The position numbers and the translations under genes were made by a program. This document shows positions 112 through 50,072 of a stretch of DNA of 50,072 nucleotides, piece after piece (position 1 is the first letter of the stretch; each line of letters opens with the position of its first letter). The notes beneath the pieces were generated by a model. The model had not been told where the DNA came from, made no database searches, and worked only from the letters and a program-made list of their open reading frames with translations. The stretch covers positions 1 to 50,072 of the forward strand of contig CALMZT010000419.1 in assembly GCA_937870805.1 (NCBI GenBank). The letters run 5' to 3'. This DNA comes from an uncultured Chloroflexota bacterium. Lineage in GTDB: Bacteria > Chloroflexota > Anaerolineae > Aggregatilineales > Phototrophicaceae.

Positions 112-3100
112 GTGACATTATTGGCGACAGGTCCGACCTACGCGGCGACTTTTGTGGTCACAAAAACGGCTGACACTAACGATGGTACATGTAGTGTTGC
201 GGATTGTTCGCTGCGAGAGGCAGTTGTAGCGGCGAACGCGGCAGGGGGAGCAGACATCATCACCCTGCCAGCAGGAACGTACTCGCTCACATCAGGGTTC
301 GGTACACTTCCTGTGACTAGCAATATCACCATTAATGGTGCGGGAAGTGGTACTACAACCATCAATCATGTCAGTGGCACATTCCGCCTTTTTAGTGTTA
401 GCAGTAGTAACAATGGTAACCTGACCCTCAACGGCGTCACCCTCACCAACGGGGGTGGTAATGGTGGGGCGATCACGATCACCAACAACAATACAGTCGT
501 CACTGTCAACAACAGCGTACTGTCCGGCAACACTGTGACTGGCAACGGCGGTGCGATTGCAGTCGTCCCCGGAGCTGCGGCTACTGCGACTGTCACCATC
601 AACAGCAGCACTATCAGTGGTAACACGGCGAGTGGGCTTGGTGGTGGTATTTATAATGCTGGTAATTTGTCTACCGCTAACACGAGTATTATAAGCAGTA
701 CCATTAGCGGCAACACGGCGGCTGGCGGGGGTGGTATTTACAATCATGCGACCAACGCTGGTACAGCTACCCTCAATGTTTTTAGAAGTGCGATAACAGG
801 TAACAACACTTCAGGAACTAATGACGGCGGTGGTATCTACAACAATGGTAGTGGTTTAGGTACTAATGCCAACCTTAACATCGCGAACAGCACCATTGCG
901 ACCAACACGGCAACGCGCAATGGTGGTGGCATTTACAACACTAACAGCACTGGTTTTCTTAACAATGGAAACTCTAATGTCAACCTTAGCAACGTGACTA
1001 TCACCCTCAACAGCGCAGGCGCTGCTGCTACCGCAGGGGGTGGTGTTTTCCGTAATCAGGGCAATCTGAGGCTGAGAAATAGCATTGTCTCCGGTAACAG
1101 CGGCACGGGCGCACCGGATTGTGCTGGTACTATGACGATCAGCGGCAGCACTGTGATCGGCAATACGACTGGCTGTACGGCGGTTGGGTCAATCGCAGGA
1201 CCTGCTAATCTAGGACCAGCCCTTAACAATCCTACAACCTACTACCCATTACTAGCAGGCAGTACGGCACGCAACGCTGTAACGCCAGCTAACTGCACGT
1301 ACCTTGCCAATAATGGCGCGAACCCGATTGTGGCGATGACTGGCGCGGTCACTATTGACCAACGTGGTATCACCCGTCCGCAGGAGACCAACTGCGATGC
1401 TGGCGCGGTAGAAATGGCACCGCCCGTCGCAGTGGACGACTGCACGCCAGGTTACAGCCTCTACGAAAATAACATCCTGGTTGTGCCAGATGTCAGTGGT
1501 GTACAGGCAAATGACACTGACGCCGACGCGGCAATCATGGGCGATTTCCTCAACACGACACTTGTTTCATCTTCACCCCCATCAGGGATTACCTACTTCG
1601 ACGAGTTTGGACTGGATGGCTCGTTTGTCTTTAACCCCGGCGATGCCAATGGGTTTTTCACCATTACCTATTCGCTCACCGATAACTACGGCGGCTCGGA
1701 TACAGGCGATTTCTGCATCACCGTCATCGAAGTCAACGACCCGCCAGTGGCAGGCGATGACAGCGCGACGGTGGCAGAAGACTCCGGCAGCACCATCATC
1801 AACGTGCTAGGCAACGACAGCAAGGGACCCGCCAACGAGAGTGGACAGACCTTGACGGTCACCATCGTGAGCGATCCCCCGAACGGCAGCACGGTGAACA
1901 ACGGCACGAACGTGAGCTATACCCCCGATCCCAATTACTTCGGATTGGACAGCTTCACTTACACGGTATGCGATAATGGCACCACCGACGGCGACCCTGA
2001 CCCGCAGTGCGACACGGCGACGGTGACGGTGACGGTCACAGCGGTCAACGATGCGCCAGTGGCAGTCAATGACAGCGACACGACCAATGAAGACAACGCG
2101 GTCACGACCAACGTGCTGGCGAACGATACCGACGTGGAGAACGACCCGCTGAGCGTGACGAACCTGACGCAGCCGGCGAATGGCACAACCGTCAACAACG
2201 GTGACGGCACGGTGACTTACACACCGAACGCCAACTTCTGCGGTATCGACAGCTATACCTACACCGCTAACGATGGCACGGTGAACAGCAACGTGGCGAC
2301 GGTGACGATCACGGTGACGTGCGTCAACGATGCGCCAGTGGCAGTCAATGACGCTGACACGACCAACGAAGACAACGCGGTCACGACCAACGTGCTGGCG
2401 AACGATACCGATGTTGAGAACGACCCGCTGAGCGTGACGAACCTGACGCAGCCTGCCAACGGCACGACCGTCAACAATGGCGATGGCACGGTGACCTACA
2501 CGCCCGATCTGGACTTCTGCGGTATCGACACTTACACCTACACCGCCAACGACGGCACAGTGGACAGCAACGTGGCGACGGTGACGATCACGGTGACGTG
2601 TGTCAACGATGCGCCAGTGGCAGTCAATGACAGCGACACGACGGCGGAAGATACGCCCGTGACGATTGACGTGCTGGCGAACGATACTGATGTTGAGAAC
2701 GACACGCTGACTGTCGTGAGTGTCACACAGCCTGCCAACGGCACGGCAGTGATCAATGGCGATGGCACGATTACCTACACGCCGGATGACAATTTCTGCG
2801 CCACCGATACATTCACCTACACGATTACGGACGGTGATCTGGGCGATACGGCAACCGTGACGGTAACAGTGACGTGTGTCAACGACGCGCCAGTGGCAGT
2901 GGATGACGCTGACACCACACCGGAAGACACGCCCGTGACGACCAACGTGCTGGCGAACGACACCGACATTGACAACGACCCGCTGAGCGTGACCAACCTG
3001 ACGCAGCCTGCGAATGGCACGACAGTCAACAACGGCGATGGCACGGTGACTTACACGCCCGATCAGGACTTCTGTGGTATCGACACTTACACCTACACCG

Positions 3101-5967
3101 CCAACGACGGCGCAACGGATAGCAATGTGGCGACGGTGACGATCACGGTGACGTGCGTCAACGACGCGCCAGATGCCGTCGATGACAGCGACACGACGAC
3201 GGAAGATACGCCTGTGACGATTGACGTGCTGGCGAACGACACGGACGTGGACGGCGACACGCTGACGATCACCAGCAACACGCAGGGTGCGAACGGCAGT
3301 GTGACCTGCACGGCGACGGACTGCACCTACACGCCAAATGAGAATTTCTGCGCCACGGACACCTTCACTTACACCATCACCGACGGTGAGCTGGGTGACA
3401 CGGCAACCGTCACTGTCACTATCGTCTGCGGCAACGACGCGCCAGTGGCGAACGACGACAGCTACAGCGTGAATGAAGACACGACGCTGACAGTTCCAGC
3501 ACCGGGTGTGCTCGTCAATGACAGCGATGTCGACAACACACTCGCAGAACTGAGCGTGACGGTGGTGGATGATGTCGATAACGGTACGCTAACACTGAAC
3601 AGTGACGGCAGTTTCACTTACACACCGGATGCTAACTTCTGCGGCGAAGATACCTTCATCTACGAGGTGAGCGATGGCACGCTGACGGATACAGCGACAG
3701 TTACTATCACGGTTAACTGCGTGAACGATGCGCCTGTAGCAGTAGAGGATTGCAACCCCGGCTACAGCGTCAATGAAGGTTCTGTCCTTAATGTAGGCGC
3801 GCCCGGTGTCTTGGGCAACGACAGCGATGTTGAAGGCGACTCAATGAGCGCGGTACTCGTCAGCACGACCTCAAACGGCACGCTGACACTCAACAGCGAT
3901 GGCAGCTTCAGCTACACGCCGAACGCAGACTTCTCTGGCTCAGACAGCTTTACCTACAAGGTGAGCGCCGGTCAACAGGAATCGGAAACCGTTCAGGTTT
4001 GCATCACGGTCAACAACGTACAGCCGAGCGTGACGCTGACCAAGACTGCCAGCCCGACGAGCCTGCCATATCCGGGCGGTACATTCACCTTCACACTGAC
4101 CATCACTAACAACACCAGCGAGCCGGTGACGATTACCAGCCTGACCGACAGCTATCCGCTCTCAGCGCAATGTACAGCGCTGGTCAACACGGTCATTCCG
4201 GGCAATGGCACAGTGTCCTGCACCTACACCGTCAACAAGACGGGCGCGGGTTCATACACTAACACCGCAACCGTGACCGTCCGTGACAACGAACAAAGCA
4301 CTGCGACGAGCAGTGACAGCGAAACCGTCGTCGTGCAATCACCGACAACCCCTGTGGAATGCGGTCCGAACTTTGTCCTCACGGGTCAGATCATCAATGG
4401 CACGCCTGGCAACGACCTGATCTACGGCAACGGCGGCGCGGATGAAATCTATGGTCTTGGCGGCGACGACTGCATCTTCGGTGGTCAGGGTCTGGACAAC
4501 CTGTACGGTGGTCCTGGCAACGACGTGATCTATGGCAATCAAGGTGACGACTACATTGAAGGCGGCGCTGGTTCTGATCTCATCCACGGCAACGAAGATG
4601 ATGATCTGATCCTGGGCGGCGACGACAATGACCAACTGTATGGCGACGCTGGCAGCGACTGCATCTTCGGTCAAAACGGCGATGACTACATCAACGGTGG
4701 CGACGGCGACGATGCTCCGCTGGTCGGTGGCGCTGGCAATGACACCATCTACGGCGGCGCAGGTCACGACGACATTTACGGCGATGGTTACACAGGCAGC
4801 AGCGGTCACGCGGAATTCCCGGCGGACTCTGGCGCGCCCGGTAACGACAACCTGTACGGTGAAGCTGGCGACGATGAAATCATGGGCGGCGGCGGCAACG
4901 ACAACCTCGTGGCGGGTCAAGGCGACGACAACATGTACGGCGAAGCTGGCGATGACCTGCTGACCGGCAACGAACGCAGCGACTACTTCGACGGCGGCGC
5001 GGGCAGCAACGATACGGCGGCAGACTTCTCATCCAGCACGGATGTTGCCTGCGTCAATATCGAGTTCGGCTGCAACGGCGATCCCGATAACGATGGTCTG
5101 CGGAACTCGGTGGACAACTGCCCGCTGGTAAGCAACGCTGACCAGGCAAACACCGATGGTGATGGCTTAGGCAACGCCTGCGACACGGACGACGACAACG
5201 ATACAGTGCTCGACGGTGGGGACAACTGCCCGCTGGTGAGCAACGTCAGCCAGACCAACACCGATGGTGACGGCTCAGGTGATGCCTGCGACAGCGACGA
5301 TGATGGCGACACAGTGCTTGACGGCGCGGACAACTGCCCGCTGGTGAGCAACGTCAGCCAGACCAACACCGATGGTGACGGCTCAGGTGATGCCTGCGAC
5401 AGCGACGATGATGGCGATACTGTTCCTGACATCTCGGATGTATGCCCCGGCTTCGATGACACTGTGGACAGCGACGGCGACGGTACAGCGGACGGCTGCG
5501 ACCCGTACCCGAACGACACGGACAACGATGGCGTGGACAATGGCGCGGATGTGTGCGCAGGCTTCGATGACGGCGTGGACACGGATAGCGATGGCACACC
5601 AGACGGGTGCGACAGCACGCCCAACGGTCTTGAAGTACGTGTTGAGCTGTCATGGAGCGACACAGACAACTACGATCTGGTAAGCTTCCATGTGGCAACC
5701 AACACCTATCCCGCGTATGGTCCGGACGACAATAACGCCTGCATGGGGGATAACGTCGGCTTCGAGCAAGTCACTTATATCGCGCCAACCCCACTCGGTC
5801 AGTACCAGGTAGACGTGTATCTGACGGGTAGTTGCGACAGCATTGCTGCCCCGTGGACGGCGACGATCTACGTGAACAACGTGGCAAGCCCGGTTGTATT
5901 CAACGGCACAGACAGCATCTCTTTCACCTTCACGCTCAACGCGGACGGGACGGTGAGCCAGCCGTAA
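112..5967 (+). CDS. Giant secreted multi-domain adhesin-like protein (parallel beta-helix repeats, Ig/cadherin-like 'tandem-95' repeats, DUF11-like module, RTX Ca-binding repeats, thrombospondin type-3 repeats)
   Basis: Single 5.9-kb ORF. The translation shows GGGIYN-type beta-helix repeats (aa ~40-330) and about nine ~93-aa VNDAPVAxxD...LANDxDxxxDxL...YTPxxxFCGxDxFTY repeats. It also has a TLTKTASP...TITNN module, many GGxGxD nonapeptides (nt ~4400-5000) and [24 protein letters not shown] TSP3 repeats (nt ~5080-5620). GTG at 112 is the first canonical start. The frame is open upstream to nt 19. Confidence 0.85.
2044..3432 (+). repeat. Five tandem ~279-bp (93-aa) near-identical coding repeats inside the adhesin gene
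   Basis: GTCAACGA(T/C)GCGCCAG unit starts are seen at 2044, 2323, 2602, 2878, 3157 and 3430 (periods 279, 279, 276, 279, 273). The periodic antisense shadow ORFs in the ORF track (2259, 2538, 2817, 3093) mirror this. Confidence 0.9.
5113..5436 (+). repeat. Three tandem 108-bp thrombospondin-type-3 coding units, the last two identical over 89 nt
   Basis: GACAACTGCCCGCTGGTGAGCAACGTCAGCCAGACCAACACCGATGGTGACGGCTCAGGTGATGCCTGCGACAGCGACGATGATGGCGA occurs at 5221-5309 and 5329-5417. A diverged copy starts at 5113. Confidence 0.85.
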
Positions 5968-9233: not shown

Positions 9234-13859
<4,626 letters not shown>

Positions 13860-17012: not shown

Positions 17013-17887
17013 AATTCAAGCTCCGCACGATTGAAGAAGCGCATCAAGGGATAGACGATGATCGTGACGAGAATGAAAAGCACAACATTGCCAGCGACAG
17101 ACAATCCGTAGAACCCTGCCTGATACTGTTTATAGATCACCGATGTGAGCACATCTGACGCAAAGCCAGGACCGCCGCGGGTCATCGTCCAGATCAAATC
17201 GAAGGTTCGCAATCCACCGATAAAAGACAGTAGGATGACTGTGAAGGTCGCATTGCGGGCTAGTGGTAGGATGACATAACGGAACTTCACCCATGTTTCA
17301 CCCTCAAGCCGCGCTGCTTCAAAAAAGTCTAATGGGATCGACAGAATGCCAGCAATGAATATCACCGTTGCGATGCCGATACCCTTCCATACGTCCACCA
17401 ACGCCACAGAGTAGAGGGCTAAGCCTGGATTTCCAAGCCAGTCAGGTCGTGGAAGACCGAGAGCGCCTAAGACGGTGTTGATGAGTCCCACCGAGGGCTG
17501 CATGAGAGAAGCGAATGTGATTCCGACTGCAACTGTACTGACAAGCACTGGGAAGAAGATGATGCCTCGAAGCAACCCCTTAAGCCGCAGACTTGAGGTG
17601 AGCAGCATTGCGAGGGGTAAGGAGATAATAACTTTAAGTCCACTCGTGATCACGGCATAAATAAATGTATTGCGAAGCCCCGCCATAAGTTGGGGGTCGT
17701 TCAAAAATCTTTCATAGTTGTCGAGTCCGATAAATGTTGCATCGAACAGCGTCCAGCGGGTCAGGCTGAAGTAAAACGCAAGCATTGTCGGAACAACGAA
17801 GAACACGCCAAAAACGAGCGCGGCTGGAAGATAAAACCAATAAGGATACGTCCGCAGAATTGTCCGCGGACGTGAGTTACTTTTCAT
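17009..17887 (-). CDS. Carbohydrate ABC transporter permease (MalF-like, CUT1)
   Basis: Polytopic protein with EAA loop FFEAARLEGETWVKFRYVILPLARN. Confidence 0.9.
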   Translation of the reverse strand: MKSNSRPRTILRTYPYWFYLPAALVFGVFFVVPTMLAFYFSLTRWTLFDATFIGLDNYERFLNDPQLMAGLRNTFIYAVITSGLKVIISLPLAMLLTSSLRLKGLLRGIIFFPVLVSTVAVGITFASLMQPSVGLINTVLGALGLPRPDWLGNPGLALYSVALVDVWKGIGIATVIFIAGILSIPLDFFEAARLEGETWVKFRYVILPLARNATFTVILLSFIGGLRTFDLIWTMTRGGPGFASDVLTSVIYKQYQAGFYGLSVAGNVVLFILVTIIVYPLMRFFNRAELEL

Positions 17888-24209: not shown

Positions 24210-24225
24210 AGTTAAGCGCTTAACT
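24210..24225. promoter_or_regulatory. Perfect 16-bp palindrome AGTTAAGCGCTTAACT, candidate LacI-family operator upstream of the second LacI gene
   Basis: Perfect dyad with a central CG, 21 nt upstream of ATG 24247. TTGACA lies at 24179-24184. Confidence 0.55.
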
Positions 24226-31160: not shown

Positions 31161-31176
31161 TGAAAACGTGTTCATA
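31161..31176. promoter_or_regulatory. Candidate LacI-type operator TGAAAACGTGTTCATA (distal copy)
   Basis: Matches the TGnAAnCGnTTnCA-like dyad typical of LacI/CcpA-family operators. It lies just downstream of TTGACA (31130-31135), a 17-nt spacer, then TACTTT. Confidence 0.5.
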
Positions 31177-38480: not shown

Positions 38481-38915
38481 ATGTCAAAGCAAATCCCGCT
38501 CAATAAAAATCAGTTCACGCTCGTCGATGATGAAGAGTTCGAACGCTTGACCGCTTTCGAGTGGAAACTCAGCAGCAAAGGCTACGCGGTGCGCTACGTC
38601 AAGCTTCCCAACGGACGTTTCAGCTACGCGCATATGCACCGCTTCATTCTCGCGGTGACGGAACGTGCCGTCGAAGTGGACCGCATCGATCACAACCGTC
38701 TCAACAACACCCGCGCCAACCTGCGCCTTGCGACGCATAACGAGAATCAATGGCATAAGCGGCTGCCGCCAAATAGCACGACGGGCTTTAAAGGCGTCAG
38801 CCGCTTCGGGGACAAATACAGCGCTGCCCTGCGCTACTACGGTCAACACCTGCACATTGCGCTGGTGGATGATCCCCTCGTGGCGGCACAACTCTACGAT
38901 GCGCTGGCACGATGA
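38481..38915 (+). CDS. HNH-like endonuclease domain fused to AP2/ERF-type DNA-binding domain (homing-endonuclease-like)
   Basis: VDRIDHNRLNNTRANLRLATHNENQ is HNH_3-like. It is followed by TTGFKGVSRFGDKYSAALRYYGQHLHIALVDDPLVAAQLYDALA, an AP2 fold pattern. ATG 38481 was chosen over the ORF-track alternative start at 38418. Confidence 0.75.
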   Translation: MSKQIPLNKNQFTLVDDEEFERLTAFEWKLSSKGYAVRYVKLPNGRFSYAHMHRFILAVTERAVEVDRIDHNRLNNTRANLRLATHNENQWHKRLPPNSTTGFKGVSRFGDKYSAALRYYGQHLHIALVDDPLVAAQLYDALAR

Positions 38916-39082
38916 CTCTTTGGCGAGTTCGCCCAACCCAATTTTGAGAGCACAGAGACCTCGCCCGAAGTTGATGCCCTGATCGCCAAAGCGTTGGTAA
39001 GGCTGCACAAGAAAGGTTTGGATGTGTGAGTTCAAATCCTGCTTCTGGGCTTCTTGTACTGAAAAAGCTTCGGAGACACCCT

Positions 39083-39493
39083 ATGTCAGCGCTACCGCAA
39101 CTCAAAACCACCGCAGAACAACTCAAAATCGTGCGCGCGGCGGGCTTGATGGCGGGCTACACCATCCTGCACGTCGCCGATAATTTCCTGCTGCAATCGC
39201 CCGTCCTCAACGAAATACCCGCTGCCTACCGCAGCGAAAACCGTGCCTGGGCGTCGCGCATCGCGTGGATACAGGACATTGGCTCTGCGCTGGAATTCGC
39301 TTATGAACTGTTTTTGCAGTACGGCGAACTGACGGTCATCACCAAAGCGACGCAGCTGCTGGCAACTTGTCACATGACGCTCAGCATCCCTTTGAAACCC
39401 GACCTCGAAAACGAAGCGACTTCCCTGCTGCTGCCGGAGAGTATTCTCATGTGCTGCGTCGGTCTCGAAAGCAAATGCCGGAACGCTCCCTGA
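39083..39493 (+). CDS. Hypothetical protein
   Basis: 136-aa ORF from ATG 39083. Its stop TGA (39491-39493) overlaps the next ATG (ATGA coupling). No recognisable domain. Confidence 0.5.
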   Translation: MSALPQLKTTAEQLKIVRAAGLMAGYTILHVADNFLLQSPVLNEIPAAYRSENRAWASRIAWIQDIGSALEFAYELFLQYGELTVITKATQLLATCHMTLSIPLKPDLENEATSLLLPESILMCCVGLESKCRNAP

Positions 39494-39918
39494 TGCTGTC
39501 TTATAAACAATTAGAGCTTCTTTTTGATCTCAAACGCGCGCCCATCACCAGCACAAAATGGACGCGCAGTTATCGCGGGCTGGTCGCTGCGGGCTACGCG
39601 ACTGAGCCTAGCGCCTACACCTTTCAGATCACCCCGGAAGGCTTGTTGTACCTCAGATGCGGGCGTAAAAAGGATAAGCGCACGATTGGCGCACAGCAGC
39701 AACTGATGCTGCATGACGTGTATGATCGCGGCGAACAAGGCAAACAATTTGTCTCCCTCAAAGACAGCAGCACTAAAGCGCGCATCGATATCCTGATCGA
39801 GCGCGGCTATTTGCTGTCGCACCCCGACTACAAAAATAACCTCATGGTGAAACTCACCCCCCAAGGGGTACGCTGGGTGAAACAGGACATTCAGCGCATA
39901 CTCGAAACAGTGCTATAA
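39492..39918 (+). CDS. Hypothetical protein, possibly two tandem winged-helix-like DNA-binding modules
   Basis: 141 aa, translationally coupled to the upstream ORF. Two internally similar segments end in ...GLVAAGYATE...ITPEGLLYL and ...LIERGYLLSH...LTPQGVRWV. The fold call is by eye only. Confidence 0.5.
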
Positions 39919-39932
39919 ATTTTCTACGGTGG

Positions 39933-39946
39933 GCGGAACGTTCCGC
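39933..39946. promoter_or_regulatory. Palindrome GCGGAACGTTCCGC (GGAACGTTCC family, site 1)
   Basis: 14-bp perfect dyad, 15 nt after the stop of the 39492-39918 ORF. Confidence 0.55.
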
Positions 39947-40586
39947 GTGTACCATATCGCTATCAGCTCGCTGCGAGAGCGATTGGTAGACTTGGCTCCA
40001 CCAGCGGCAACCTGTTGAAATCGCGGTAGACAAAAGATAGAGGGGTTGTGCGGTGCGCAAAAGGTGCACACCCCGTTGCTCACCCGCCAGACGCAAGCAT
40101 GAAGGAAAAACTGCCTCACGCAGCCAAAATCCGACACAAAACCTCTCAATGTAAGAAATCTACACATAGCATCATACTACCTGTAGATTTGAGCGTGCAG
40201 CGTCTGATCTCCTCACAGAACATCAATAGTGCTGTGATTTAGGACATCAACCCCAGAAACCATAAGGATAGTGTCCTCATGCTTTCCCCTTTCATGAGCT
40301 TTCCCTGACCGGTTAGGCATTCAAGAAGGCTTGACACTTGTGTTGAGGCGGGAACGAGGTGCTCAATCATGACCCATAGAGGCGGGAGCGAGTGTTCCAC
40401 ACCCAAACGCTCAAAACGCTCAAATCTATGAAAGCTACTCAGGTTTCGTCCTGGTCGTAATGCGCTACCCTCTTGTTCGCCTCTAGAGGCTTAGCGTACT
40501 TAGCTCCTACATTTGAGACAATACAATGTACCTGTCAGTGTGCCTATTGCATAACTTTCTTTCATAGACCTATGCCCTGACTTCTG

Positions 40587-41009
40587 TTATCCATCAATTC
40601 CTAGTCGTGGAGAGGTCTGATGCCCAACGTCCCGGATCGCCACTCGCACTTCCCAAGGCGTAGCCCAACAGATCGTGTTCACGTCTCCCTGCCAAAGTCT
40701 CACTGGCTGTGTCAAGCCGAAGCGGCAGTACGATTTACGTGCGTCCGAAACACAGATGATAATCCCATTTGACGCTCCTTTTTTGCCGGAACGTTCCGCT
40801 GCTCTCAGCGCACTCTGCTCTTCCCTCTCAGCAGGCTGCGCTGTTTCCTGACCTTCAGGAGGTAGCGCCTTATCCCGCACCCCACGAGAGTGCTTAGCCG
40901 CCTGAACCCACACGGACAAGGTACAACCTTTCGCTCGCGCATCCTGCATCAAGCACTCCCATTCAGCGTTTTGCTCGCGCTGCTTCGCCGCCGCAACCTC
41001 ACCTATCAC
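40587..41009 (-). CDS. Questionable ORF (possible RHH-like N-terminus)
   Basis: 140-aa ORF. EWECLMQDARAKGCTLSVWVQAAKH faintly resembles ribbon-helix-helix antitoxin/CopG helices. The ORF contains one GGAACGTTCC palindrome and sits in a motif-dense region, so it may be non-coding. Confidence 0.3.
   Translation of the reverse strand: MIGEVAAAKQREQNAEWECLMQDARAKGCTLSVWVQAAKHSRGVRDKALPPEGQETAQPAEREEQSALRAAERSGKKGASNGIIICVSDARKSYCRFGLTQPVRLWQGDVNTICWATPWEVRVAIRDVGHQTSPRLGIDG
40787..40798. promoter_or_regulatory. Palindrome CGGAACGTTCCG (site 2)
   Basis: 12-bp perfect dyad. Confidence 0.5.
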
Positions 41010-41080
41010 TACCCCCTCGGCGCATTTCTCCAGCCACTTCAGTGGAGGCTGATACGTTGAGTCCTTCTAGTCCCTGCGTT

Positions 41081-41096
41081 TTTGGAACGTTCCAAA
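41081..41096. promoter_or_regulatory. Palindrome TTTGGAACGTTCCAAA (site 3)
   Basis: 16-bp perfect dyad, 72 nt upstream (minus-strand sense) of the 40587-41009 ORF and downstream of the primase gene. Confidence 0.55.
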
Positions 41097-41288
41097 GTGC
41101 CACAGGCAGCAGCGAACGCTTCCTGCTGGATCTGTTGTCTCCCTCGCCTTAGTCCTTGTTGCAGGACAACAGCCCATCGAAGATTTCGCCAGCGGGCAGT
41201 AGGATCGTGCCGACCCAGCACTCATGTCCGGTGCGGCGGTTGCCTTTAAGCCGCAGGGTACCGATTTTCTGGTAAGCGAGTTGCTTGC

Positions 41289-43781
41289 TCAACCCCTGAT
41301 CGGTCTGAACTCGTCAAAATCCCGTCCGATATGTGCCTGTTGTGCGACATCAGCAGCCCTCAACCCAAGTATGGCGAGCAAATCGCGGTAGTCTTTGATG
41401 CGGCGCATAATTTCGCCGGTCGGTCGGTCAATCAACAGGGTGCTGCCCTCGCTGTGATGGGCGTGGTAGCCGGTTACCAATTCAACCGCTAAAACCAGCT
41501 GACCAAACACCCAGCGTGGGTTATACCCTTGTCGATAATCATGTTTGAGGGTCAAGCGCGGCGCTTTTGGGGTTCGAGTACAGTAGTGGGGGACGGGTTC
41601 ACGCCGCGCTTTTGGCTCTGGCTCGGCGGGTTCCTTGAGTACAAGGTAGTAGCTGTTGGCGAGACGTGTACGCGCGACAATCTGGCGTCCCTGAGCGCGT
41701 TGGGCGTTCACCCATTGGCTATCCACTTGTGACAGGCAGCGTGATTCAACGTAGCGCTCACCTTCCTTTGCTTTGAGTTCAAATACCTTCCCCTTATGCT
41801 GGTAGCTGATACGCCGAATTTCTTTCGCGAGGTCAGCCGTGGGTTGTATCGGAAATTCTCCAAAATTGGGGCTGCTCTCAATGCCTGCGCGGTCCATGAT
41901 TTTGGGAACATAAGACTCAGCACAGTTGAGTTCGCGGGCAAGTTGTTTTTGTGAGATGGGCTTGCCGGCTGTCTCCCGAATGATGGCGCGTGCTTTGGCG
42001 GCGCACGGGTCATAAGTTGCCCAGATCGGCTCCAATTGGAGAATACGCGGGCTTTCCAGTCCGGCGGCTAAACGTTCATAGTCAGCATTAAACCGTTTGA
42101 TCGCCTGCTCACGCTGCCACGACTGGCGCTGATGGGCGGGTTCAATCGCATGCATCACAGCGGCGGCAAGCTCGCGGTTAGGCTCCCCTGTGAGGGCTGC
42201 CAACATCTCCGGCGTAAACCGTGCCAGTGTCTTTTCGCCTGTGTGTTTCTCTGCCAAATAACGGCGCGCCAATTGGAGTAGATTGGCGCGGATGACCGCT
42301 TCAGGTTGAGCGTGATAGACGATTGCGCGGCGTCCGGTGGAGTTTTTGTCAAAATTCGGGGGTATAGAACCCGTACTCCCTACTTTTGACAAAAAGAGGT
42401 CTTTGAGCGCCAATTCCTCTAAACCGCGTGCGATGGTCCGGGGTGAAAGCTGCACCTGCAAAATCTCAGCGGCGGCGATCACATCCTTCACTGTGAAGCC
42501 TTCGGCGGCGATCAATCCGCTGTTGATCGCGCTGTTCAGGAGGCGTGCGATCTTTTCGCAGCGTTTGGCTGAACTGCCGTCCGGCAAGGCGTCTCTGAGA
42601 ATTTCCCCTACGGCACTGGGCAAATCACCCTCCCACCACCCCGTTTGGCGCGTAGAGGCGCGGTACCAGGCGGCAAGATCGCCGTCCTGCTGTAAGAACG
42701 CGGTGGGGTCTTTCACGCCTTGCGGCAGGGTCAGTGGCTTGCTCCCCAGCGCCGCTAACTGCTCCAAGGGTTTCGCTTTTTTGCCCGCGGCGTCATTGTC
42801 AAACAGCGTGTAAATCTGTCCGGCGGTTTTGAGGCGTTCCAGAAAACGCCGCTTGATCGGCGTTGAAGCGCTGCCGACGGTGATGACTGTGACCTGTGGG
42901 AGCGCTGCCTGTGCGACAATGGCGTCAAACTCGCCCTCGACGACCAGCACGTCGCGTCCGCTTTCGAGACGGTCGGCTCCGAACGGAATGCCGGTTCGAT
43001 GTCCGCGTAAACCGATATACTTGTCTACTGGGGTTCCGTCCTTGTGCGTGTCGGTGATGTGGAGCGCGGCGGCAAAATCCCCGACATGGCGCCGGGTCTT
43101 GACGTTCCATAACTGACCCTCGGCTTCAATCGGGATGGTGATGCCGCGGGCGAGTGCGATTTTTCCGGTGTCGTCTTCGAGGCCCATGTCCTGCCATTGG
43201 GGGTTGTAGCCGATGCCGTACTTTTCGATTAAAGCGTCTGTAATGCCGCGATTGTGCAGATAGTCGCGGGTCGCGCGGGCTTGGGGATGGTCAGAGTGCC
43301 TCAAAAACTCATGTGCGCGTGTAGCAGCGGCGCGGGCGGCGCGCTGCCATGCGGTGGGCGGGGGTTCGTCGGCGCTGGATGTGTGCTCTAATCGTCTCAC
43401 AGCAGGGCGCGCCGCGCGGGCGGCGGTCCCTGCCAGCTCTTGCAAGACTTCGGCGGTGGATAAACCGTGATAGCGCTTCATGAAGTCGATCACATCGCCC
43501 CCTATGCCGCACGCGCCATAGCAGCGCCATGTTTGCGCCCGTGGGTCGACCTTAAAGGAAGGCGTCTTCTCGTCATGGAACGGGCAGCACGCCACTAAAA
43601 GGCGTCCCTGGCGCTTGAGGGAGACCAAACCCCCGATATACGTCTCGATGTCGGGCTTAAGGCGATCAATATCAGCACGGGGCTGTCCCTGAGGGCGTTG
43701 CCGCTGCTGAACATCGGTCTGAGGATAGACACTAGCGCCATCTTTTGCTATCATATCATTAACCTTTGAGTTTGATCTCAT
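41289..43781 (-). CDS. DnaG-type primase (CHC2 zinc finger + Toprim) fused to a ~450-aa C-terminal region with HTH/winged-helix-like segments; no helicase motif seen
   Basis: CCPFHDEKTPSFKVDPRAQTWRCYGACGIGGDVIDF is a CHC2 zinc finger. VLVVEGEFDAIV...LFDNDAAGKKA is Toprim. The C-terminal part has HTH-like SQKQLARELNCAESYVPKI. I found no Walker A motif. Confidence 0.85.
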   Translation of the reverse strand: MRSNSKVNDMIAKDGASVYPQTDVQQRQRPQGQPRADIDRLKPDIETYIGGLVSLKRQGRLLVACCPFHDEKTPSFKVDPRAQTWRCYGACGIGGDVIDFMKRYHGLSTAEVLQELAGTAARAARPAVRRLEHTSSADEPPPTAWQRAARAAATRAHEFLRHSDHPQARATRDYLHNRGITDALIEKYGIGYNPQWQDMGLEDDTGKIALARGITIPIEAEGQLWNVKTRRHVGDFAAALHITDTHKDGTPVDKYIGLRGHRTGIPFGADRLESGRDVLVVEGEFDAIVAQAALPQVTVITVGSASTPIKRRFLERLKTAGQIYTLFDNDAAGKKAKPLEQLAALGSKPLTLPQGVKDPTAFLQQDGDLAAWYRASTRQTGWWEGDLPSAVGEILRDALPDGSSAKRCEKIARLLNSAINSGLIAAEGFTVKDVIAAAEILQVQLSPRTIARGLEELALKDLFLSKVGSTGSIPPNFDKNSTGRRAIVYHAQPEAVIRANLLQLARRYLAEKHTGEKTLARFTPEMLAALTGEPNRELAAAVMHAIEPAHQRQSWQREQAIKRFNADYERLAAGLESPRILQLEPIWATYDPCAAKARAIIRETAGKPISQKQLARELNCAESYVPKIMDRAGIESSPNFGEFPIQPTADLAKEIRRISYQHKGKVFELKAKEGERYVESRCLSQVDSQWVNAQRAQGRQIVARTRLANSYYLVLKEPAEPEPKARREPVPHYCTRTPKAPRLTLKHDYRQGYNPRWVFGQLVLAVELVTGYHAHHSEGSTLLIDRPTGEIMRRIKDYRDLLAILGLRAADVAQQAHIGRDFDEFRPIRG

Positions 43782-43945
43782 CGTCGATTCGCCTGTTACA
43801 ACAGGCGTTTTTCTTCCTCTGCTCTTCCCTGCCTCATATCACCTGGAAAAGGTGTTTGTGTCCCTGCTGATGCGGCACAGTGGCTCACTGCTTTTAACCA
43901 AACCTGTTCGCATATTTGCTTTCTTGTGATACAATCCATGTAGTC

Positions 43946-43955
43946 GGAACGTTCC
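43946..43955. promoter_or_regulatory. Palindrome GGAACGTTCC (site 4) upstream of the primase gene
   Basis: 10-bp perfect dyad, 165 nt upstream of the primase start. A CGTTCC half-site follows at 43982-43987. Confidence 0.5.
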
Positions 43956-44760
43956 ACGCGTTGTCCTTATGACGAACCAGGCGTTCCATCGAGGTTACCC
44001 ATCGTGGTCGCTTTGGCTTAAAATCCCTGCCTTGCTCGTCCCACTGTGCCGTAAGTTTGCTGACTCTTGACACAGTGGAAACGAGGTTTGTAATGGCTGG
44101 GATTTTTTGCGTCTTATTTCTAATCGTGAGTGTAACATATTTTTGCTATATCTCTCTGTCAAAACTTTTTTTCAAAAGCCTCATCATCCGTGAAACGTTA
44201 TTTACCGTTCATGATTTTGAAGGTGATATTTATCCCCCAGAAGATGGACATTGCTCCAGCTCTGGTCCTTTTAGACTCTGATGGGTTCAATTTTCCGCCT
44301 GTAATTCTTGAATAGACTTAACGTACTCGTTTTGCTTATAATAATGTCCATACCCTGTGTCACCGTCATAAACACTGTCTCGTAGCCCTTAGTGCGGGAA
44401 TAGGATGTCATGACTGTGCAGCTAAGGTCAATCAACCATCACCTCGCTGGCAAACACCTTAAAACGCTGGCTACTCCTGCTGTTTTGCGCTATGCCTTAC
44501 CTATGCTCCCCCCAATTGGTGACAAACACAAAGTACACTTGTCAGATCACACTTTCGCGCTATACTTGAAAGTGTATTGAAGCAAATAATCCACTGCTTC
44601 GTGCGGAGGGTGTAACACGATAAGCACTCGCAAGGTTTTCCTGACCATAGGGGCGAGTGTTTTTCGCTTTTATAGACCAGTTAGACTCTACCGCATAATC
44701 AAAAATCCGCAAGTCCCCTTGAATCGAAGGCTTTCTGCCTGTCTGTTGCACCCTCCTCGG

Positions 44761-45852
44761 TTATGATGATTGTGACTTCTTCAGCCGCATCATTGCAAAA
44801 CGCAAGCCCCCCACCGCGTTCATATCCACTGGATGCACTTTTGCTGTTGAAAGGCTACTCTTGGGGTCAAGGATTTTGTTGCCGTACCACTTTTTCATAA
44901 AGTCATGTACCAACGTTGTTCCCCCACCGACTAAGATGACTGACTTCACCCCTTTGAAGCCACCAAACACCCCATCGGCGATATTGTTGGCGATCCATTC
45001 AGCAAAGCGCTCACGGTACTTGTCCACCAGCGGCTTCAGATCAACGGCTAGTCCTGCTGCGCGCAGTGTGTAGTCACCTTTCTCCAGTCCCGCGCGGATG
45101 ACCAAATCGATGTCGTCGACGGTGATATTGGCGAAATCCTCAGCCTTCTTCTTGATGACGCTCAAGATGGGTTCGCGGAGGTGGACATTGATGCCGCCGT
45201 TTTCCCACGTTGCGAATTGCAGCGCTTCAGGGTTGAAGTTGCCGTCCGTCAGCTTGAGGGCGTCGAGGGTATATGCCCCCATGTCCAACACCACTGTGTC
45301 TCCGGAGAGTACGTCACTTTTCACGACCTCGCCTTTATCATCGAGGATGAAGCAAGCGGCTGCGCCGACGCCTTCGGGCCAGACGGTGACGTTCTCATAC
45401 GTCCACTCGCGGGGTTTCTTGTCGGCTTTGAAGCGGATTTCGACCTCGCCTTTGTCTTCCATCAAGCGCTTGATGATGTCGGGTTTGAGCTGGTTGTATG
45501 CGCCGGGTGGTGCGAATAAAGTGAGGTCTACAGTGCCTTTGGTGACACCCAGTTTACCAATGGCGACGGCGATCAAAAACTGCTGCATCTCGTTGGCGTA
45601 GCGATTGAGACCCATGTGGCGCTCAAGATTGCGACGGGTGACGCGGATGACATCATCGCCATACACATAGCGATGTCCATTCCAATCCACCCAATCGTAC
45701 TGCATTTCGAGGTTAGCGCCTAAACCCAGCGTATCGCCAGTTGCTGCCGCACGTACTGAGGGGAAATAAACGCTGGTGTACCCCCCCTTCTTCGCCATCA
45801 CGGCGTTTGTCCCGCCGTTGCCCGCATCCACAGAAATCACATGGTCAGCCAT
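44761..45852 (-). CDS. ParM/StbA-like actin-family segregation ATPase
   Basis: Actin-fold signatures appear in order: ISVDAGNGGTN (phosphate 1), WPEGVGAA, VVLDMGAYTLD (phosphate 2), VILVGGGT (adenosine). 363 aa. Confidence 0.8.
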   Translation of the reverse strand: MADHVISVDAGNGGTNAVMAKKGGYTSVYFPSVRAAATGDTLGLGANLEMQYDWVDWNGHRYVYGDDVIRVTRRNLERHMGLNRYANEMQQFLIAVAIGKLGVTKGTVDLTLFAPPGAYNQLKPDIIKRLMEDKGEVEIRFKADKKPREWTYENVTVWPEGVGAAACFILDDKGEVVKSDVLSGDTVVLDMGAYTLDALKLTDGNFNPEALQFATWENGGINVHLREPILSVIKKKAEDFANITVDDIDLVIRAGLEKGDYTLRAAGLAVDLKPLVDKYRERFAEWIANNIADGVFGGFKGVKSVILVGGGTTLVHDFMKKWYGNKILDPKSSLSTAKVHPVDMNAVGGLRFAMMRLKKSQSS

Positions 45853-45864
45853 TGGTCAGTCCTT

Positions 45865-46356
45865 TTATTGTTGCAGGCGAAGCATCGAGTTCAAGAAGTT
45901 GAGTGCCGAATCTGTATTGGTGTCGCGTTGGATGACGAGTGTATCTTCCTCATCATCAAAGCGAGGGAGATCGAACTTGGGTGTATTTAACGCTTGTGGT
46001 CCATCGATGATGATAGGTTGGAGTTGCCTGGTTGTGTCATGGAGCACGGCTCTCTCACTGGTGAGTAGTTTCTCAAGGCGCTCCAATTGGTGCTGCAACT
46101 CTAACTCCCCTGCTGTTTTCTGTGGGTGTATTTCTACTAGAAGCTCTGCTTTGACGAAAGGAAATAGTTCAAATAGCACATCTACCCTGCCATGTTTAAG
46201 GTCAAAGAAAAGTCGCAAAGCGTCGCGAATCGTTTTAACGAACGTGCGCTTCACTTTTAGTTCATGGATGCGCTCGTCAAGTTGATCTTCATTATCTTTT
46301 TTTAAATCAAGCCAAAACTTGTGCATAACACGATAGCGAGTTTGTGCTGGCATCAT
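45865..46356 (-). CDS. Hypothetical protein with RHH-like N-terminus and acidic C-terminus (candidate ParR-like adaptor)
   Basis: 163 aa, 12 nt upstream of the ParM-like gene on the same strand. YRVMHKFWLDL + DQLDERIHELK + TFVKTIRDALRLFFDL fits a strand-helix-helix pattern. Confidence 0.5.
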   Translation of the reverse strand: MMPAQTRYRVMHKFWLDLKKDNEDQLDERIHELKVKRTFVKTIRDALRLFFDLKHGRVDVLFELFPFVKAELLVEIHPQKTAGELELQHQLERLEKLLTSERAVLHDTTRQLQPIIIDGPQALNTPKFDLPRFDDEEDTLVIQRDTNTDSALNFLNSMLRLQQ

Positions 46357-46371
46357 CTATATTCCTATTGT

Positions 46372-46418
46372 TGGCATTAATGCCATTGGCATTCTACCAC
46401 AATTTGCATAATTGCAAA
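46372..46418. promoter_or_regulatory. Cluster of dyad sites in the divergent promoter region (candidate operator/centromere-like site)
   Basis: TGGCATTAATGCCA is a perfect 14-bp palindrome at 46372-46385. It is followed directly by TTGGCATT (46386-93). TTTGCA-TAAT-TGCAAA lies at 46403-46418. Confidence 0.45.
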
Positions 46419-46510
46419 ACTAAATATAGAATTATGGCGAACCAAAGCGCTTTGTAGAGGTCATAGTGCTCTCACTTTTGTTTTTACCTCTAAGTGAATA
46501 TCCAAGATGT

Positions 46511-47101
46511 ATGAATTACACGACTACTGACGCTGAAAATATCTTTAAAGTTGCGCCTCAAACTGTACGTAACTGGGCGCGGGAGTTTGCACGATACTTA
46601 TCGGTTAGCGCTAACCCGCAAGAGGGCAAAACCCGTATCTTCAGCGAAGATGATATGCGTGTGTTAGAGCTTGTGGCGCGCATGAAACGCGAAAACAAGC
46701 ACCATGATGAGATTCATGTGACTTTGATGGCAGGTGAACGGGGAAATCTGCCTAGTTTTTCACCTGATGAGGTTCGCGCTCTGGTTTCTGGTGAGGTTGA
46801 GCGCAAACTCCACCTGGAGATTCAGGTGCTTCGCCGTCAGTTGGATGCTGCCGAACAAAAGGCACAAGATGCTGAGCGCTATCACTCAGAGAACATCAAA
46901 CTCAAAGCTCAATTAGAGGCTGCGGAGAAGCGCGCCCAAGACCTGCTAGAGCAATTAAAGTCAGCTAATGAGGCGCAGCAACTCTCTATCCTCGAATCTC
47001 TTAAGCGGGTTGAGGATCTTGCCAAACAAATCGGCGATGCTTATGTCAAAGGTGTCATGGAAACCTTAAATCGCAAGGGGGACCTGCCGGATAAAAAATA
47101 G
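46511..47101 (+). CDS. MerR/excisionase-type HTH protein with long C-terminal coiled coil
   Basis: The N-terminus FKVAPQTVRNWAREFARYLS...RIFSEDDMRVLELVARMK fits the MerR-type HTH pattern. The C-terminal ~100 aa are heptad-rich (LEIQVLRRQLDAAEQKAQDAE...). ATG 46511 was chosen over the ORF-track start at 46466. Confidence 0.7.
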   Translation: MNYTTTDAENIFKVAPQTVRNWAREFARYLSVSANPQEGKTRIFSEDDMRVLELVARMKRENKHHDEIHVTLMAGERGNLPSFSPDEVRALVSGEVERKLHLEIQVLRRQLDAAEQKAQDAERYHSENIKLKAQLEAAEKRAQDLLEQLKSANEAQQLSILESLKRVEDLAKQIGDAYVKGVMETLNRKGDLPDKK

Positions 47102-47204
47102 CCTCATGTTCAGAACAAGTCCTCGCCGCCTATAAATAAGTGCAGCTTATAGTGTAAACCCCTCGTCTCTATTCTTAAGTCTCCAGACAACTCTCAATCA
47201 AATA

Positions 47205-47378
47205 ACTCACCTTACGCAGTTTATCGCTCTGGGTTCAAAACCCAGCGCTAACAGAGCATGGATAAACCTCTGAAGAGGTTGAAACATCGCAGCCCCAACC
47301 CGTGAACCTGTTTCTAACGCCCATAACTGGCAGTTCAAAACTGCCAGCGTCCACAGCGAACGGTTGCGTAAGGTGAGT
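47205..47378 (+). ncRNA. Candidate structured RNA (or DNA-level palindrome cluster): 14-bp closing helix enclosing three perfect hairpins, two with GTTCAAAAC T-loop-like loops
   Basis: ACTCACCTTACGCA (47205-18) pairs perfectly with TGCGTAAGGTGAGT (47365-78). The internal hairpins are CTGGG-TTCAAAA-CCCAG (47229-45), AACCTC-TGAA-GAGGTT (47265-80) and CTGGCAG-TTCAAAA-CTGCCAG (47327-47). The strand is unresolved. The overlapping 60-aa ORF is judged spurious. Confidence 0.4.
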
Positions 47379-47498: not shown

Positions 47499-47635
47499 AA
47501 GCAAGGGATGAGTTCAATTCGCGATAAATTCATGAGCTTAAACTCAACTATTTAATTGTGAATAAATTGCGAAAAATTGTAAATAATTAAGAATATTAAT
47601 TGTTTTTTGCGAAAGGCGACATAGAATGAGTTAAA

Positions 47636-48278: not shown

Positions 48279-49426
48279 GATTCGCATACAAGAAGGGGGC
48301 ATAGAAGTCCCCTTGCTTCGGATTTATAAAAGCAAACACTCGTTTTTAAATGCTCAGAAAACCAACGGGTATTCCCATAAATTGAGTCTTTTCACTCAAT
48401 GATTAAAGCGAGCCTCAAACCAGGCGAAAATCTGAAGCCGAATTCCGAAGGCGTACCTGCTGAGCGACACCCTTTCAGACTGCGCGTGTGGGTCTCAACG
48501 CGATGAAACCCCAGCCCAAAATGATGATCCACAGCGATGACCAGCCGCGAGAAAACTTGAAGAAAACCCCGTTCTGATTTATCATCCTAATTAGCAAGAT
48601 TAGTTGATAAATCTATGGGTTTGTTCAAGCGCCTTGCGAAATCCCGGCTAACAAGCTGGGATTTTGGTTTTAGTACAGCACGCATCACGCTTGTAGCCAT
48701 TAATTTAACGCGATTGCTCACGAGAGTCAAGAAATTCGTCTCCTTCATTATAGAATCTGTCTGAAAGCTCCATTTCTCCAAAATCCAAGCCGCGTGGCAA
48801 CACCTGCCGCTTCACAAGGGTAGGTATTTAAGGAAAGGAATTGAGCGCACGCCAGAACCTCACCCCCTTTGTCCCCCTCTCCCCTTTAGAAACGCAGTGA
48901 AATTGGGAGTCCAGACACGTGGAGAGGGGGAAATGCTCCGCGTGCAGGAAAATAGGCTTGAGGGAAGGATGTTTTTGAGTTCATGTTGCAACTAGCATTA
49001 AAAACCTACCCTTGCAAACCCCTGCCGCCATCCTGGCTGAATTTTTTATTTGGCGGATGGCGAGGCTGTCGCTGCCATTGAACGGACAGCGGCGGCAGAT
49101 GGTGAGGCTGGTGCTGCCGCTCTGTGCGGCGCGTGCGCGGCAACAGCGGCGGTTCGACGGGAGCGATGTGCCACGCAGCGCCAAGAGGGCAGCCGCCTCA
49201 GAGATCAGCGTAGTAATCATGAACTCTGTTCACCGAAAGCGATGAAAATGTATCGCGGAAGGCACCCATCAGGCGGGCGCACACGTTGGTGCGCCCCTAC
49301 AAAGACCTTTGTGCTCTCCCGTAACATTCATTCTGCAAGGCTATTTTCAGGATAGCACAAATGAGACGTCATTTGCGTTCCTTTTGACACTTTAATGCGG
49401 GATGTAATGTAGGGGAGTGGCTAAAA

Positions 49427-49510
49427 GCGGAACGTTCAATGTTAAAGGTGGAACGCTAAATATTAAAAATGGGACGTTAAATGCAAAAAGTGGAACACTG
49501 GCGAAGGGAG
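49427..49510 (+). repeat. Iteron-like array: four direct repeats at exact 21-bp phasing, core GGAACG
   Basis: The units are GCGGAACGTTCAATGTTAAAG, GTGGAACGCTAAATATTAAAA, ATGGGACGTTAAATGCAAAAA and GTGGAACACTGGCGAAGG. Cores start at 49429, 49450, 49471 and 49492. ORFs on both strands here merely translate the repeat. Confidence 0.7.
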
Positions 49511-50004
49511 GACTGAGAACTCGCTGGAAATTCAATTTGGCAAAGACTTTGTTAGCGCAGATAAAAAGCCTGTCACACCAGAAAAAGGGGAGTCGGCTTT
49601 TTATCAATAATTCCCCAAAAACTTTGGTTATCAGAAACTTACCGTAACAATCCTTCCTCATACCCTGTCGCTCATTTAGTTAGTAATTGCGTTCGTTATC
49701 AATATGAAGCTCGTAAATAATTCCTCAAGAACGTAAAACTATTGTGAATTAACATTCATATACTATTTTAGTTAACATAATAATATCCGTATACTGTGGG
49801 CTATAACATGACTTTTTTCCTACTTCTCAAGTAGAAACAGCATTCTGGTGTTATTGCGACTGTGACCAAAAACGGTCAACATGAGGTATAAACACCAGTA
49901 TTTGTTGTAATAATTAGCATTATCAGGGGAAGATTATGATTAAAAGACTAAGATAGGACTTACGCAAAAGAGCGCGAAAAAGGGGGAGACGATAAACTAG
50001 TGGC

Positions 50005-50072
50005 ATGAGTACCGTAACCCGCCTCGACTACTGTCAGTTTCTGTTGGTCAGTCAAACGAACTATACATTGAC
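50005..50072 (+). CDS. 5' fragment of a probable DDE transposase gene running off the window
   Basis: ATG 50005 opens MSTVTRLDYCQFLLVSQTNYTL. I recall the DYCQ(F/Y)LL.SQ.NYT N-terminal pattern from IS4/IS701-like transposases. Only 22 codons are visible. Confidence 0.35.
   Translation, partial: MSTVTRLDYCQFLLVSQTNYTL

Follow-up and report, generated by a model that had tools for sequence, protein, structure and literature searches.

In the F plasmid, oriS contains iterons, the repE promoter has an inverted repeat, and incC, downstream of rep, holds more iterons for looping (PMC13028717). The IncQ plasmid RSF1010 encodes the primase RepB', the helicase RepA and the iteron-binding protein RepC, and has 3.5 iterons of 20 bp (cf. 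PMC8567376). Here we describe a locus that recalls both, on contig CALMZT010000419.1 (assembly GCA_937870805.1) of an uncultured Chloroflexota bacterium of the class Anaerolineae. The window, i.e. the whole contig of 50,072 bp, has no terminal overlap and is a plasmid-like element. The palindrome GGAACGTTCC occurs four times in it, on both sides of a gene for a DnaG-type primase, and shares eight bases with an array of 21-bp direct repeats. The locus most likely consists of replication-control binding sites in an uncharacterised plasmid lineage, arranged according to a familiar logic.

Two other types of system are relevant. In RK2 (IncP), with KorA and KorB, and in pSM19035, with omega, one repressor reads a short sequence that is repeated exactly across the plasmid backbone. 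The Rep protein of ColE2 is an origin-specific primase, not of the DnaG type, which is under antisense RNA control and binds a single 32-bp origin; we know of no repeated dyads or iterons in ColE2-type plasmids.

Like the iteron plasmids (F with RepE, oriS and incC; pPS10, R6K and P1), the window has tandemly repeated units of ~20 bp that adjoin an AT-rich stretch, an inverted repeat with part of the iteron sequence near a replication gene, and further sites across that gene. Unlike them, it encodes a DnaG-type primase fusion and no Rep_3/RepA-type initiator, no DnaA box was found, and it has four identical zero-spacer dyads instead of one operator, with iterons 5.5 kb off. Because no known Rep family is encoded, the window is not a member of the iteron plasmids, although the logic of its cis-acting sites matches theirs. 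It resembles RSF1010 in having a plasmid primase and about 3.5 repeats of ~20 bp beside AT-rich DNA, and in one related locus (L013) the genes for an AAA_25 helicase, a DnaG-like primase and a small winged-helix protein are lined up; but the primase of the window is of the DnaG type and not of the RepB' type, and no helicase, RepC homology or ssi hairpins were identified. Indeed, no protein of the window is a P-loop or AAA_25 helicase such as an IncQ-like system would contain. The exact repetition of one short sequence is reminiscent of the Kor and omega regulons, but the window encodes no ParB-like or KorA-like protein, and the sites are limited to the replication module and leave out the partition promoter. 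As in ColE2, the primase is the sole replication protein and a candidate antisense RNA lies opposite its start.

Four copies of a perfect palindrome around the primase gene

An exact-match scan of the window finds GGAACGTTCC at four positions (starts 39935, 40788, 41084 and 43946) and nowhere else, with 0.03 copies expected; in 100 dinucleotide-preserving shuffles the maximum was one copy, and none reached four. The cores of sites 1 to 4 are embedded in perfect dyads of 14, 12, 16 and 10 bp, respectively. An earlier note on this DNA had reported four perfect palindromes of 10–16 bp at these places and none in the remaining 46 kb, and both the scan and the reading of the sequence agree with it. 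Palindromic 10-mers of 29 types occupy 33 positions in the window, and no type but GGAACGTTCC exceeds two copies. Since their 12-base flanks are unrelated (top identity 0.42), the four copies are short sites and not fragments of a longer repeat. They span 4,021 of the 50,072 bp (P ~0.002 for four random points), and their consensus, with flanking positions added, is YGGAACGTTCCR. Sites with one mismatch number just three (38660, 39480 and 49429), compared to ~1.4 expected per window, and all of them lie in the same 11-kb module.

The window shows no enrichment of the bare half-site GGAACG (32 seen, ~27 expected). The extra half-sites to which the same note had drawn attention (40351, 40394 and 43982) are thus indistinguishable from chance and carry no weight, while the repeat that it described with a 34-nt spacing is present, as a 14-nt direct repeat at 40345/40379.

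Sites 2, 3 and 4 also occur in an independent Logan assembly (SRR28401826), whose contigs are identical to positions 40338-41353 and 43883-47232 of the window: contig L105 holds sites 2 and 3, and L002 holds site 4. These three sites are therefore not assembly artefacts. In 0.89 Mb of related Anaerolineae loci, GGAACGTTCC occurs twice outside the same organism, for ~0.85 copies expected; it is therefore not a lineage-wide repeat. The four sites are real and far beyond chance.

All four are situated in DNA that is non-coding or of doubtful coding potential, on either side of the sole replication gene, which encodes the primase (41289-43781, minus strand, 830 aa; the start chosen by the gene caller, 43754, gives 821 aa). 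Site 1, GCGGAACGTTCCGC (39933-39946, core 39935-39944), is a 14-bp dyad located 17 bp past the stop codon of an orphan gene for a protein of 141 aa, P0121 (39493-39918, plus strand), at the edge of ~640 bp that contain no convincing open reading frame (ORF) and reach to a 140-aa ORF. The latter, P0244 (40587-41009, minus strand), is called in the stretch from site 3 to site 2; it is an orphan that scores weakly as coding sequence and has no informative match. Site 2, CGGAACGTTCCG (40787-40798, core 40788-40797), is a 12-bp dyad within this called ORF. Site 3, TTTGGAACGTTCCAAA (41081-41096, core 41084-41093), is a 16-bp dyad 75 bp upstream of the ORF start (41009), hence between it and the primase stop (41289), as had been noted before; a degenerate copy, GCGAACGCTTCC, is found ~25 bp from it, inside 41108-41126. 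Site 4 is the bare 10-bp dyad GGAACGTTCC (43946-43955), in a gap of ~980 bp between the primase start and the end of an actin-like gene, 165-190 bp upstream of the primase start codon. Two of the one-mismatch sites belong to the same part of the window. GGAACGCTCC (39480-39489) ends 3 nt before the ATG of P0121 (39493) and overlaps the end of a 155-aa ORF, its significance being uncertain; GGAACGTGCC (38660-38669) is within the ORF of an HNH endonuclease and may be there by chance.

Predicted promoters lie close to several of the sites. By eye, an extended -10 element, TGcTATAAA (39911-39919, plus strand), may be recognised 15 nt upstream of site 1, and a predicted plus-strand promoter (40734-40763) ends 24 nt upstream of site 2. 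A promoter-like site with an extended -10 (TTCGCA-17-TACAAT with TG, 43907-43935, plus strand) precedes site 4, which begins 10 nt past the -10 hexamer and would overlap the predicted transcription start. This predicted promoter is directed away from the primase, at genes of 62 aa (44093-44281) and 56 aa (44410-44580) which the gene caller predicts on the independent contig. The earlier note had put site 4 in the primase promoter region; this is not supported, and the best-scoring promoter-like site that touches site 4 points the opposite way. The best one facing the primase is TTGACA-17-TATGTT (44134-44162, minus strand), and site 4 would fall ~175 nt into the transcript started from it (44162-44134). 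Thus sites 1, 2 and 4 are each 10-24 nt downstream of a promoter-like -10 on the plus strand (that of site 1 by eye), and a conserved element at the promoter of a partition gene, p163, occupies the same position relative to its own -10. Sigma-70-like promoters are found in this plasmid group, L050 carrying a perfect TTGACA-17-TATAAT. These promoter placements are predictions, to be taken as leads and not as findings.

A sequence shared with 21-bp direct repeats, and its candidate readers

The array of 21-bp direct repeats (49422-49499, plus strand) consists of three full units and a partial fourth; as a tandem repeat of period 21 it is delimited at 49422-49496, with 3.6 copies. Its consensus, TAAAAGTGGAACGTTAAATGT, can be written TAAAAGT-GGAACGTT-AAATGT, where GGAACGTT stands for the eight bases common to the repeats and the palindromes (the first eight of GGAACGTTCC). 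Unit 1, GGAACGTTCA, agrees with the palindrome at nine of ten positions. We estimate the probability of finding a given 8-mer, on either strand, in a 21-bp unit at ~4e-4. It had been claimed that the same GGAACG core forms these iterons: this is exact for units 1 and 2, while unit 3 reads GGGACG and the partial unit 4 GGAACA. A single inverted half-site, CGTTCC (49376-49381, minus strand), is present 47 bp before the first iteron and could be due to chance. The array adjoins an AT-rich stretch (49600-49900, 31-33% GC), a candidate DNA-unwinding region, so the window has the tandem direct repeats of 17-22 bp adjoining an AT-rich region that are typical of iteron replicons. The DnaA box TTATCCACA has no perfect match window-wide, and no match with one mismatch near the iterons. 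The ORFs that flank the iterons have negative coding scores.

The reading that we favour, with about even confidence, is that a single sequence-specific protein, encoded by the plasmid and involved in replication control, has its binding sites in both the palindromes and the 21-bp repeats. This protein would recognise GGAAC(G). It would bind the perfect dyads symmetrically, as a dimer, and keep the transcription units that flank the primase gene repressed, so that the replication module would be autoregulated. It would also bind the direct repeats beside the AT-rich stretch, which would then be the origin or a locus for copy control and handcuffing. Protein binding at the sites, the identity of the binder, repression and the location of the origin are what we infer from the arrangement of the sites. 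The iteron-plasmid Rep logic that the earlier note had proposed survives as far as the shared eight bases, the AT-rich neighbour and the sites around a replication gene are concerned; it fails in that no Rep_3/RepA-type initiator is encoded.

Two proteins appear about equally likely to be the binder, P0121 and the C-terminal part of the primase. The primase starts with a zinc ribbon and a Toprim domain, followed by a C-terminal region of ~450 aa that matches no known family. In this region, a helix-turn-helix (HTH) motif is suggested by a sub-threshold match to Sigma70_r4/CENP-B_N (E 0.05) at about residues 596-632 of 830, and this patch is the sole part of a poor structural model to reach a pLDDT of 70. 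The orphan P0121 seems by eye to consist of two winged-helix repeats, and has sub-threshold matches to Mrr_N and Cullin_Nedd8 (winged-helix folds, E 0.12), one per half; its HMMER matches to PPR and ankyrin repeat proteins were rejected as spurious. The 155-aa ORF which precedes P0121 (39026-39493, plus strand, coding score 0.067), and whose stop codon overlaps its start (TGATG), has no family match in Pfam, NCBIfam or PHROGs, and the same searches assign no family to the small ORFs.

Several results weigh against the reading of palindromes and repeats as sites of one replication protein. The search for a Rep_3/RepA-type initiator was negative in the ORFs of at least 100 aa of the window as well as in 63 small ORFs. 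A distance of 5.5 kb separates the iterons from the nearest palindrome, and no ORF alongside them is convincing as a gene. Searches of genome, metagenome and viral contigs gave no relative of the C-terminal region of the primase, whose sole homologue is P0002, a 49%-identical primase on a 3.4-kb contig that lacks the motif; the motif is thus absent from the short flank available for the only close relative of the primase (L001). P0121 has no homologues and no sequence match in the Protein Data Bank. The AlphaFold models of P0121 (from a single sequence) and of the C-terminal region of the primase are unusable (pLDDT of 47.6 and 47.2, respectively). The promoter scan returned 16 sites, a modest excess over the 10 expected, and no gene is apparent downstream of the promoters predicted beside sites 1 and 2. 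The geometry of the dyad is also unfavourable: in a 10-bp dyad without spacer, the centres of the half-sites are about half a helical turn apart, which is unusual for HTH dimers and is not the usual geometry of a Rep-dimer operator, and a ribbon-helix-helix or similar binder fits it better. Finally, no iteron array is present in the fetched parts of three related loci, L006, L013 and L036.

Two side observations concern the primase genes. In the window, a candidate short antisense RNA faces the start codon of the primase; it would start from a promoter-like TAGACA-17-TATCAT with TG (43726-43754, plus strand) and end at a hairpin followed by a U-run (43790-43815, -14.6 kcal/mol, z -3.55). In L001, two inverted arms of 33 bp (AAATCGGGAAGCCCTCTAAACTCGACTTTATGG) enclose ~130 bp downstream of the primase homologue (2222-2440) and look like a miniature inverted-repeat transposable element (MITE).

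Related plasmids and rival explanations

The related loci were surveyed for parallels. In 57 loci of at least 5 kb, we looked for perfect palindromic 10-mers present in at least three copies with unrelated flanks, and found them only in the window, L006 and L036. L006 has four copies of (G)ATTACGTAAT(C), i.e. GATTACGTAATC, at 1727, 2942, 3503 and 8620, and near-sites at 8257 and 9083; together they flank a 451-aa ORF and a 926-aa PriCT_2 replicase encoded downstream of the actin-like gene. In L036, ATCCCCGGGGAT occurs three times (7510, 8269 and 9255), with near-sites at 8638 and 8746, after Prim-Pol and helicase genes. L013 has five copies of GATAAYRTTATC (17, 1081, 1475, 1566 and 11104), four of them downstream of an HNH-primase gene pair and one 21 bp past the actin-like gene. 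Its minus-strand module (2177-5735) contains, in this order, the genes for an AAA_25 helicase, an IS3-like insertion, and the genes for an 87-aa winged-helix protein, a DnaG-like primase (347 aa) and an HNH endonuclease; helicase, winged-helix protein and primase form a trio reminiscent of IncQ. Small winged-helix proteins are encoded in the modules of both L006 and L013 (HTH_24/IclR, E 5e-4; HVO_A0261_N/TrmB, E 4e-5 to 1e-3). L006, L036 and L013 each have a sequence of their own, and it therefore appears that plasmid-specific short dyads in the replication module, often near a small winged-helix gene, recur in this group of plasmids, although they are not universal. The pairing of HNH endonuclease and primase genes is common to L013 and the window.

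At the level of BLASTP, the modules that bear the sites in the window, in L006 and in L036 have no protein family in common. The repeated palindromes of L011 and L021 were not retained as parallels: their flanks are repeated too, as in hairpins of the repetitive extragenic palindrome (REP) type or duplicated genes. In L011, a 22-bp hairpin palindrome, GGGGCAAGATATATCTTGCCCC, is present seven times (3469, 7166, 17065-17575 and 18240), four copies being 170 bp apart, and is REP- or MITE-like. Lone palindromic 10-mers downstream of the actin-like gene of other loci are at the background frequency of ~1/kb.

A bolder proposal, which we consider rather unlikely, is that replicon-specific palindromes of 10-12 bp form a lineage identity code flanking unrelated primase-type replicases, the code of the window being read by the C-terminal region of its primase. 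The primase would then be a self-targeting initiator, which would bind the dyads for control and the 21-bp iterons for initiation, without a classical Rep. GGAACGTTCC in the window and ATTACGTAAT, ATCCCCGGGGAT and GATAAYRTTATC in the relatives may be examples of such a code.

Among the rival explanations, the one that survives best, as a serious though minor possibility, is that a small winged-helix or ribbon-helix-helix repressor of the KorA or omega type acts at four operators, so as to coordinate several promoters of the backbone, and has no role at an origin. The likeness to the 21-bp repeats would then be incidental, or the repeats would titrate the repressor. Identical perfect palindromes at several promoter-like sites suit such a regulator, as do the zero-spacer dyad, which is appropriate for a small symmetric repressor, the small winged-helix genes in the analogous modules of L006 and L013, and the lack of iterons in the fetched parts of L006, L013 and L036. 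On the other hand, chance is unlikely to produce an identity of eight bases with the iteron consensus, no clear target gene is seen for two of the predicted promoters, and the promoter of the partition operon is outside the regulon.

The origin could also be situated in the poorly coding 1.3 kb downstream of the primase (39950-41288), with sites 1-3 as initiator boxes, site 4 as an autoregulatory operator and the iterons at 49.4 kb as a locus for copy control or incompatibility (cf. incC of F, or ori and crr of phage P4). Three of the four sites do cluster there, where no convincing gene is found, next to the direct repeats at 40345/40379, and the site clusters of L006 and L036 are likewise just past replicase genes. 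We nevertheless hold this location to be unlikely: its AT-richness is mild (a minimum of 44% GC, compared to 31-33% near the iterons), and the gene caller places the 140-aa ORF in it.

Three LacI regulators are encoded in the window, along with ABC sugar transporters, a rhamnosidase and a GH3 enzyme, which raises the question of whether the palindromes are operators of the LacI family (CebR/CelR type), by which a LacI protein of the plasmid or of the host would tie the replication genes to the sugar supply. The published 14-nt consensus of CebR2, TGGGAACGTTCCCA, and CelR-like sites contain the GGAACGTTCC core (PMC9953190, PMC3377646). The sites of the window thus have the same 10-base core as these operators and a central CG, typical of the family. 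However, the outer two positions of the half-site (6 and 7) deviate from TG and differ from one of the four sites to the next, and all of these sites belong to the replication module. The promoter regions of the sugar operons all lack the motif, and two of them carry other dyads of the LacI type, which precede the second and the third LacI gene: GTTAAGCGCTTAAC (24211-24224, perfect) and TGAAAACGTGTTCA (31161-31174). These are probably the operators of the sugar operons, and a LacI-type function of GGAACGTTCC seems improbable.

The partition cassette of the window comprises a divergent coiled-coil protein of the MerR-like type, a protein of 163 aa (p163) and an actin-like protein (ParM/Alp). 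The latter has hundreds of relatives in genome bins of Anaerolineae and Aggregatilineales, so that the host almost certainly belongs to this class, and the cassette is kept in ~40 of the fetched loci. It has cis-elements of its own. In nearly all of these loci, an element of alternating half-sites lies directly upstream of p163, immediately after a sigma-70-like promoter (among them L006, L009, L010, L012, L013, L030, L031, L034, L037, L044, L049, L050, L061 and L106). It reads TGGCATTAATGCCATTGGCATT in the window (46372-46393) and often GGCTTATAGTGCCA elsewhere, and is a candidate parC or operator of the partition system. Locus-specific palindromes of 18-24 bp, such as GTACAACCTGGTACCAGGTTGTAC and TCATTAGTTAACGTTAACTAATGA, lie beside the MerR-like gene in L045, L017, L067, L091 and L062, and the window has TTTGCAATTATGCAAA and CAAAGCGCTTTG near this gene (46400-46460). 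Judged from their position, these long palindromes are likely operators of the MerR-like coiled-coil protein.

One may wonder whether the four dyads and the array are dispersed parC-like centromere sites for p163 as the adaptor of the actin-like system. The N-terminus of p163 does look like a ribbon-helix-helix by eye, arrays of ~20-bp repeats serve as centromeres in pSK41-type systems, and one palindrome of L006 and of L013 is just past the actin-like gene. We nevertheless regard this idea as very improbable. The conserved element at the p163 promoter would be the natural parC, and GGAACG is absent from the promoter region of the window's own cassette. Moreover, L106 (11 kb), which has 88% identity to the window in the actin-like protein and 60% in p163, has a different downstream module and contains neither GGAACG nor a repeated palindrome. 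The sites therefore follow the primase module and not the partition system. Since p163 and the MerR-like protein each have conserved likely sites of their own, both were set aside as binders of GGAACGTTCC, and with the link to partition excluded the logic of iterons plus inverted repeats is left as the best fit.

The absence of any dedicated function (chance, a host-wide palindrome or a motif related to restriction-modification) can be almost dismissed, even if the host is represented by a single 50-kb contig, considering the copy number and clustering (0.03 copies expected, P ~0.002), the chance-level count in 0.89 Mb of related loci, the lack of a methyltransferase or restriction gene in the window, and the length of the motif, whose 10 bases exceed the usual restriction-modification targets.

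The plasmid-like element and the significance of its sites

Apart from the genes discussed above, the window encodes a cadherin-like adhesin, an IS630 transposase, a resolvase, an HNH endonuclease and a sortase. The contig starts with the tail of a reading frame (1-70), and an IS-like frame opens at its end (50003-50072, MSTVTRLDYCQFLL...). In L067, the partition cassette adjoins an adhesin which resembles that at positions 112-5967 of the window. The IS frame at the contig end and the gene order of L067 suggest that the contig is a circle interrupted at a repeated IS.

A nucleotide search with positions 39000-45000 against phage and plasmid collections (PLSDB among them) gave no match, nor did the C-terminal region of the primase and the actin-like protein when they were compared to plasmid proteins. 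Rfam and tRNA scans of the window returned nothing. A 1541-aa ORF (9234-13859, minus strand) is highly repetitive, very strongly skewed in both GC and AT, and without a match in Pfam; nearly all the short words that occur 11-20 times in the window lie within it. A tandem repeat of TAATTGTGAA (3.5 copies, 47553-47588) is located in a stretch of 32-35% GC upstream of the sortase gene.

To our knowledge, plasmids of Chloroflexota (Anaerolineae) are essentially uncharacterised, and genetic tools are lacking for this phylum. The locus provides a testable map of cis-acting sites, with four dyads, an iteron array, a separate partition element and a shortlist of candidate binders. If a small winged-helix protein reads the sites, it would be an ordinary repressor or initiator in a new lineage. 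If the C-terminal region of the primase does so, this enzyme would bring the DnaG type among the few enzymes that act as sequence-specific plasmid initiators. The sites would also help to define minimal replicons for vectors in Chloroflexota.

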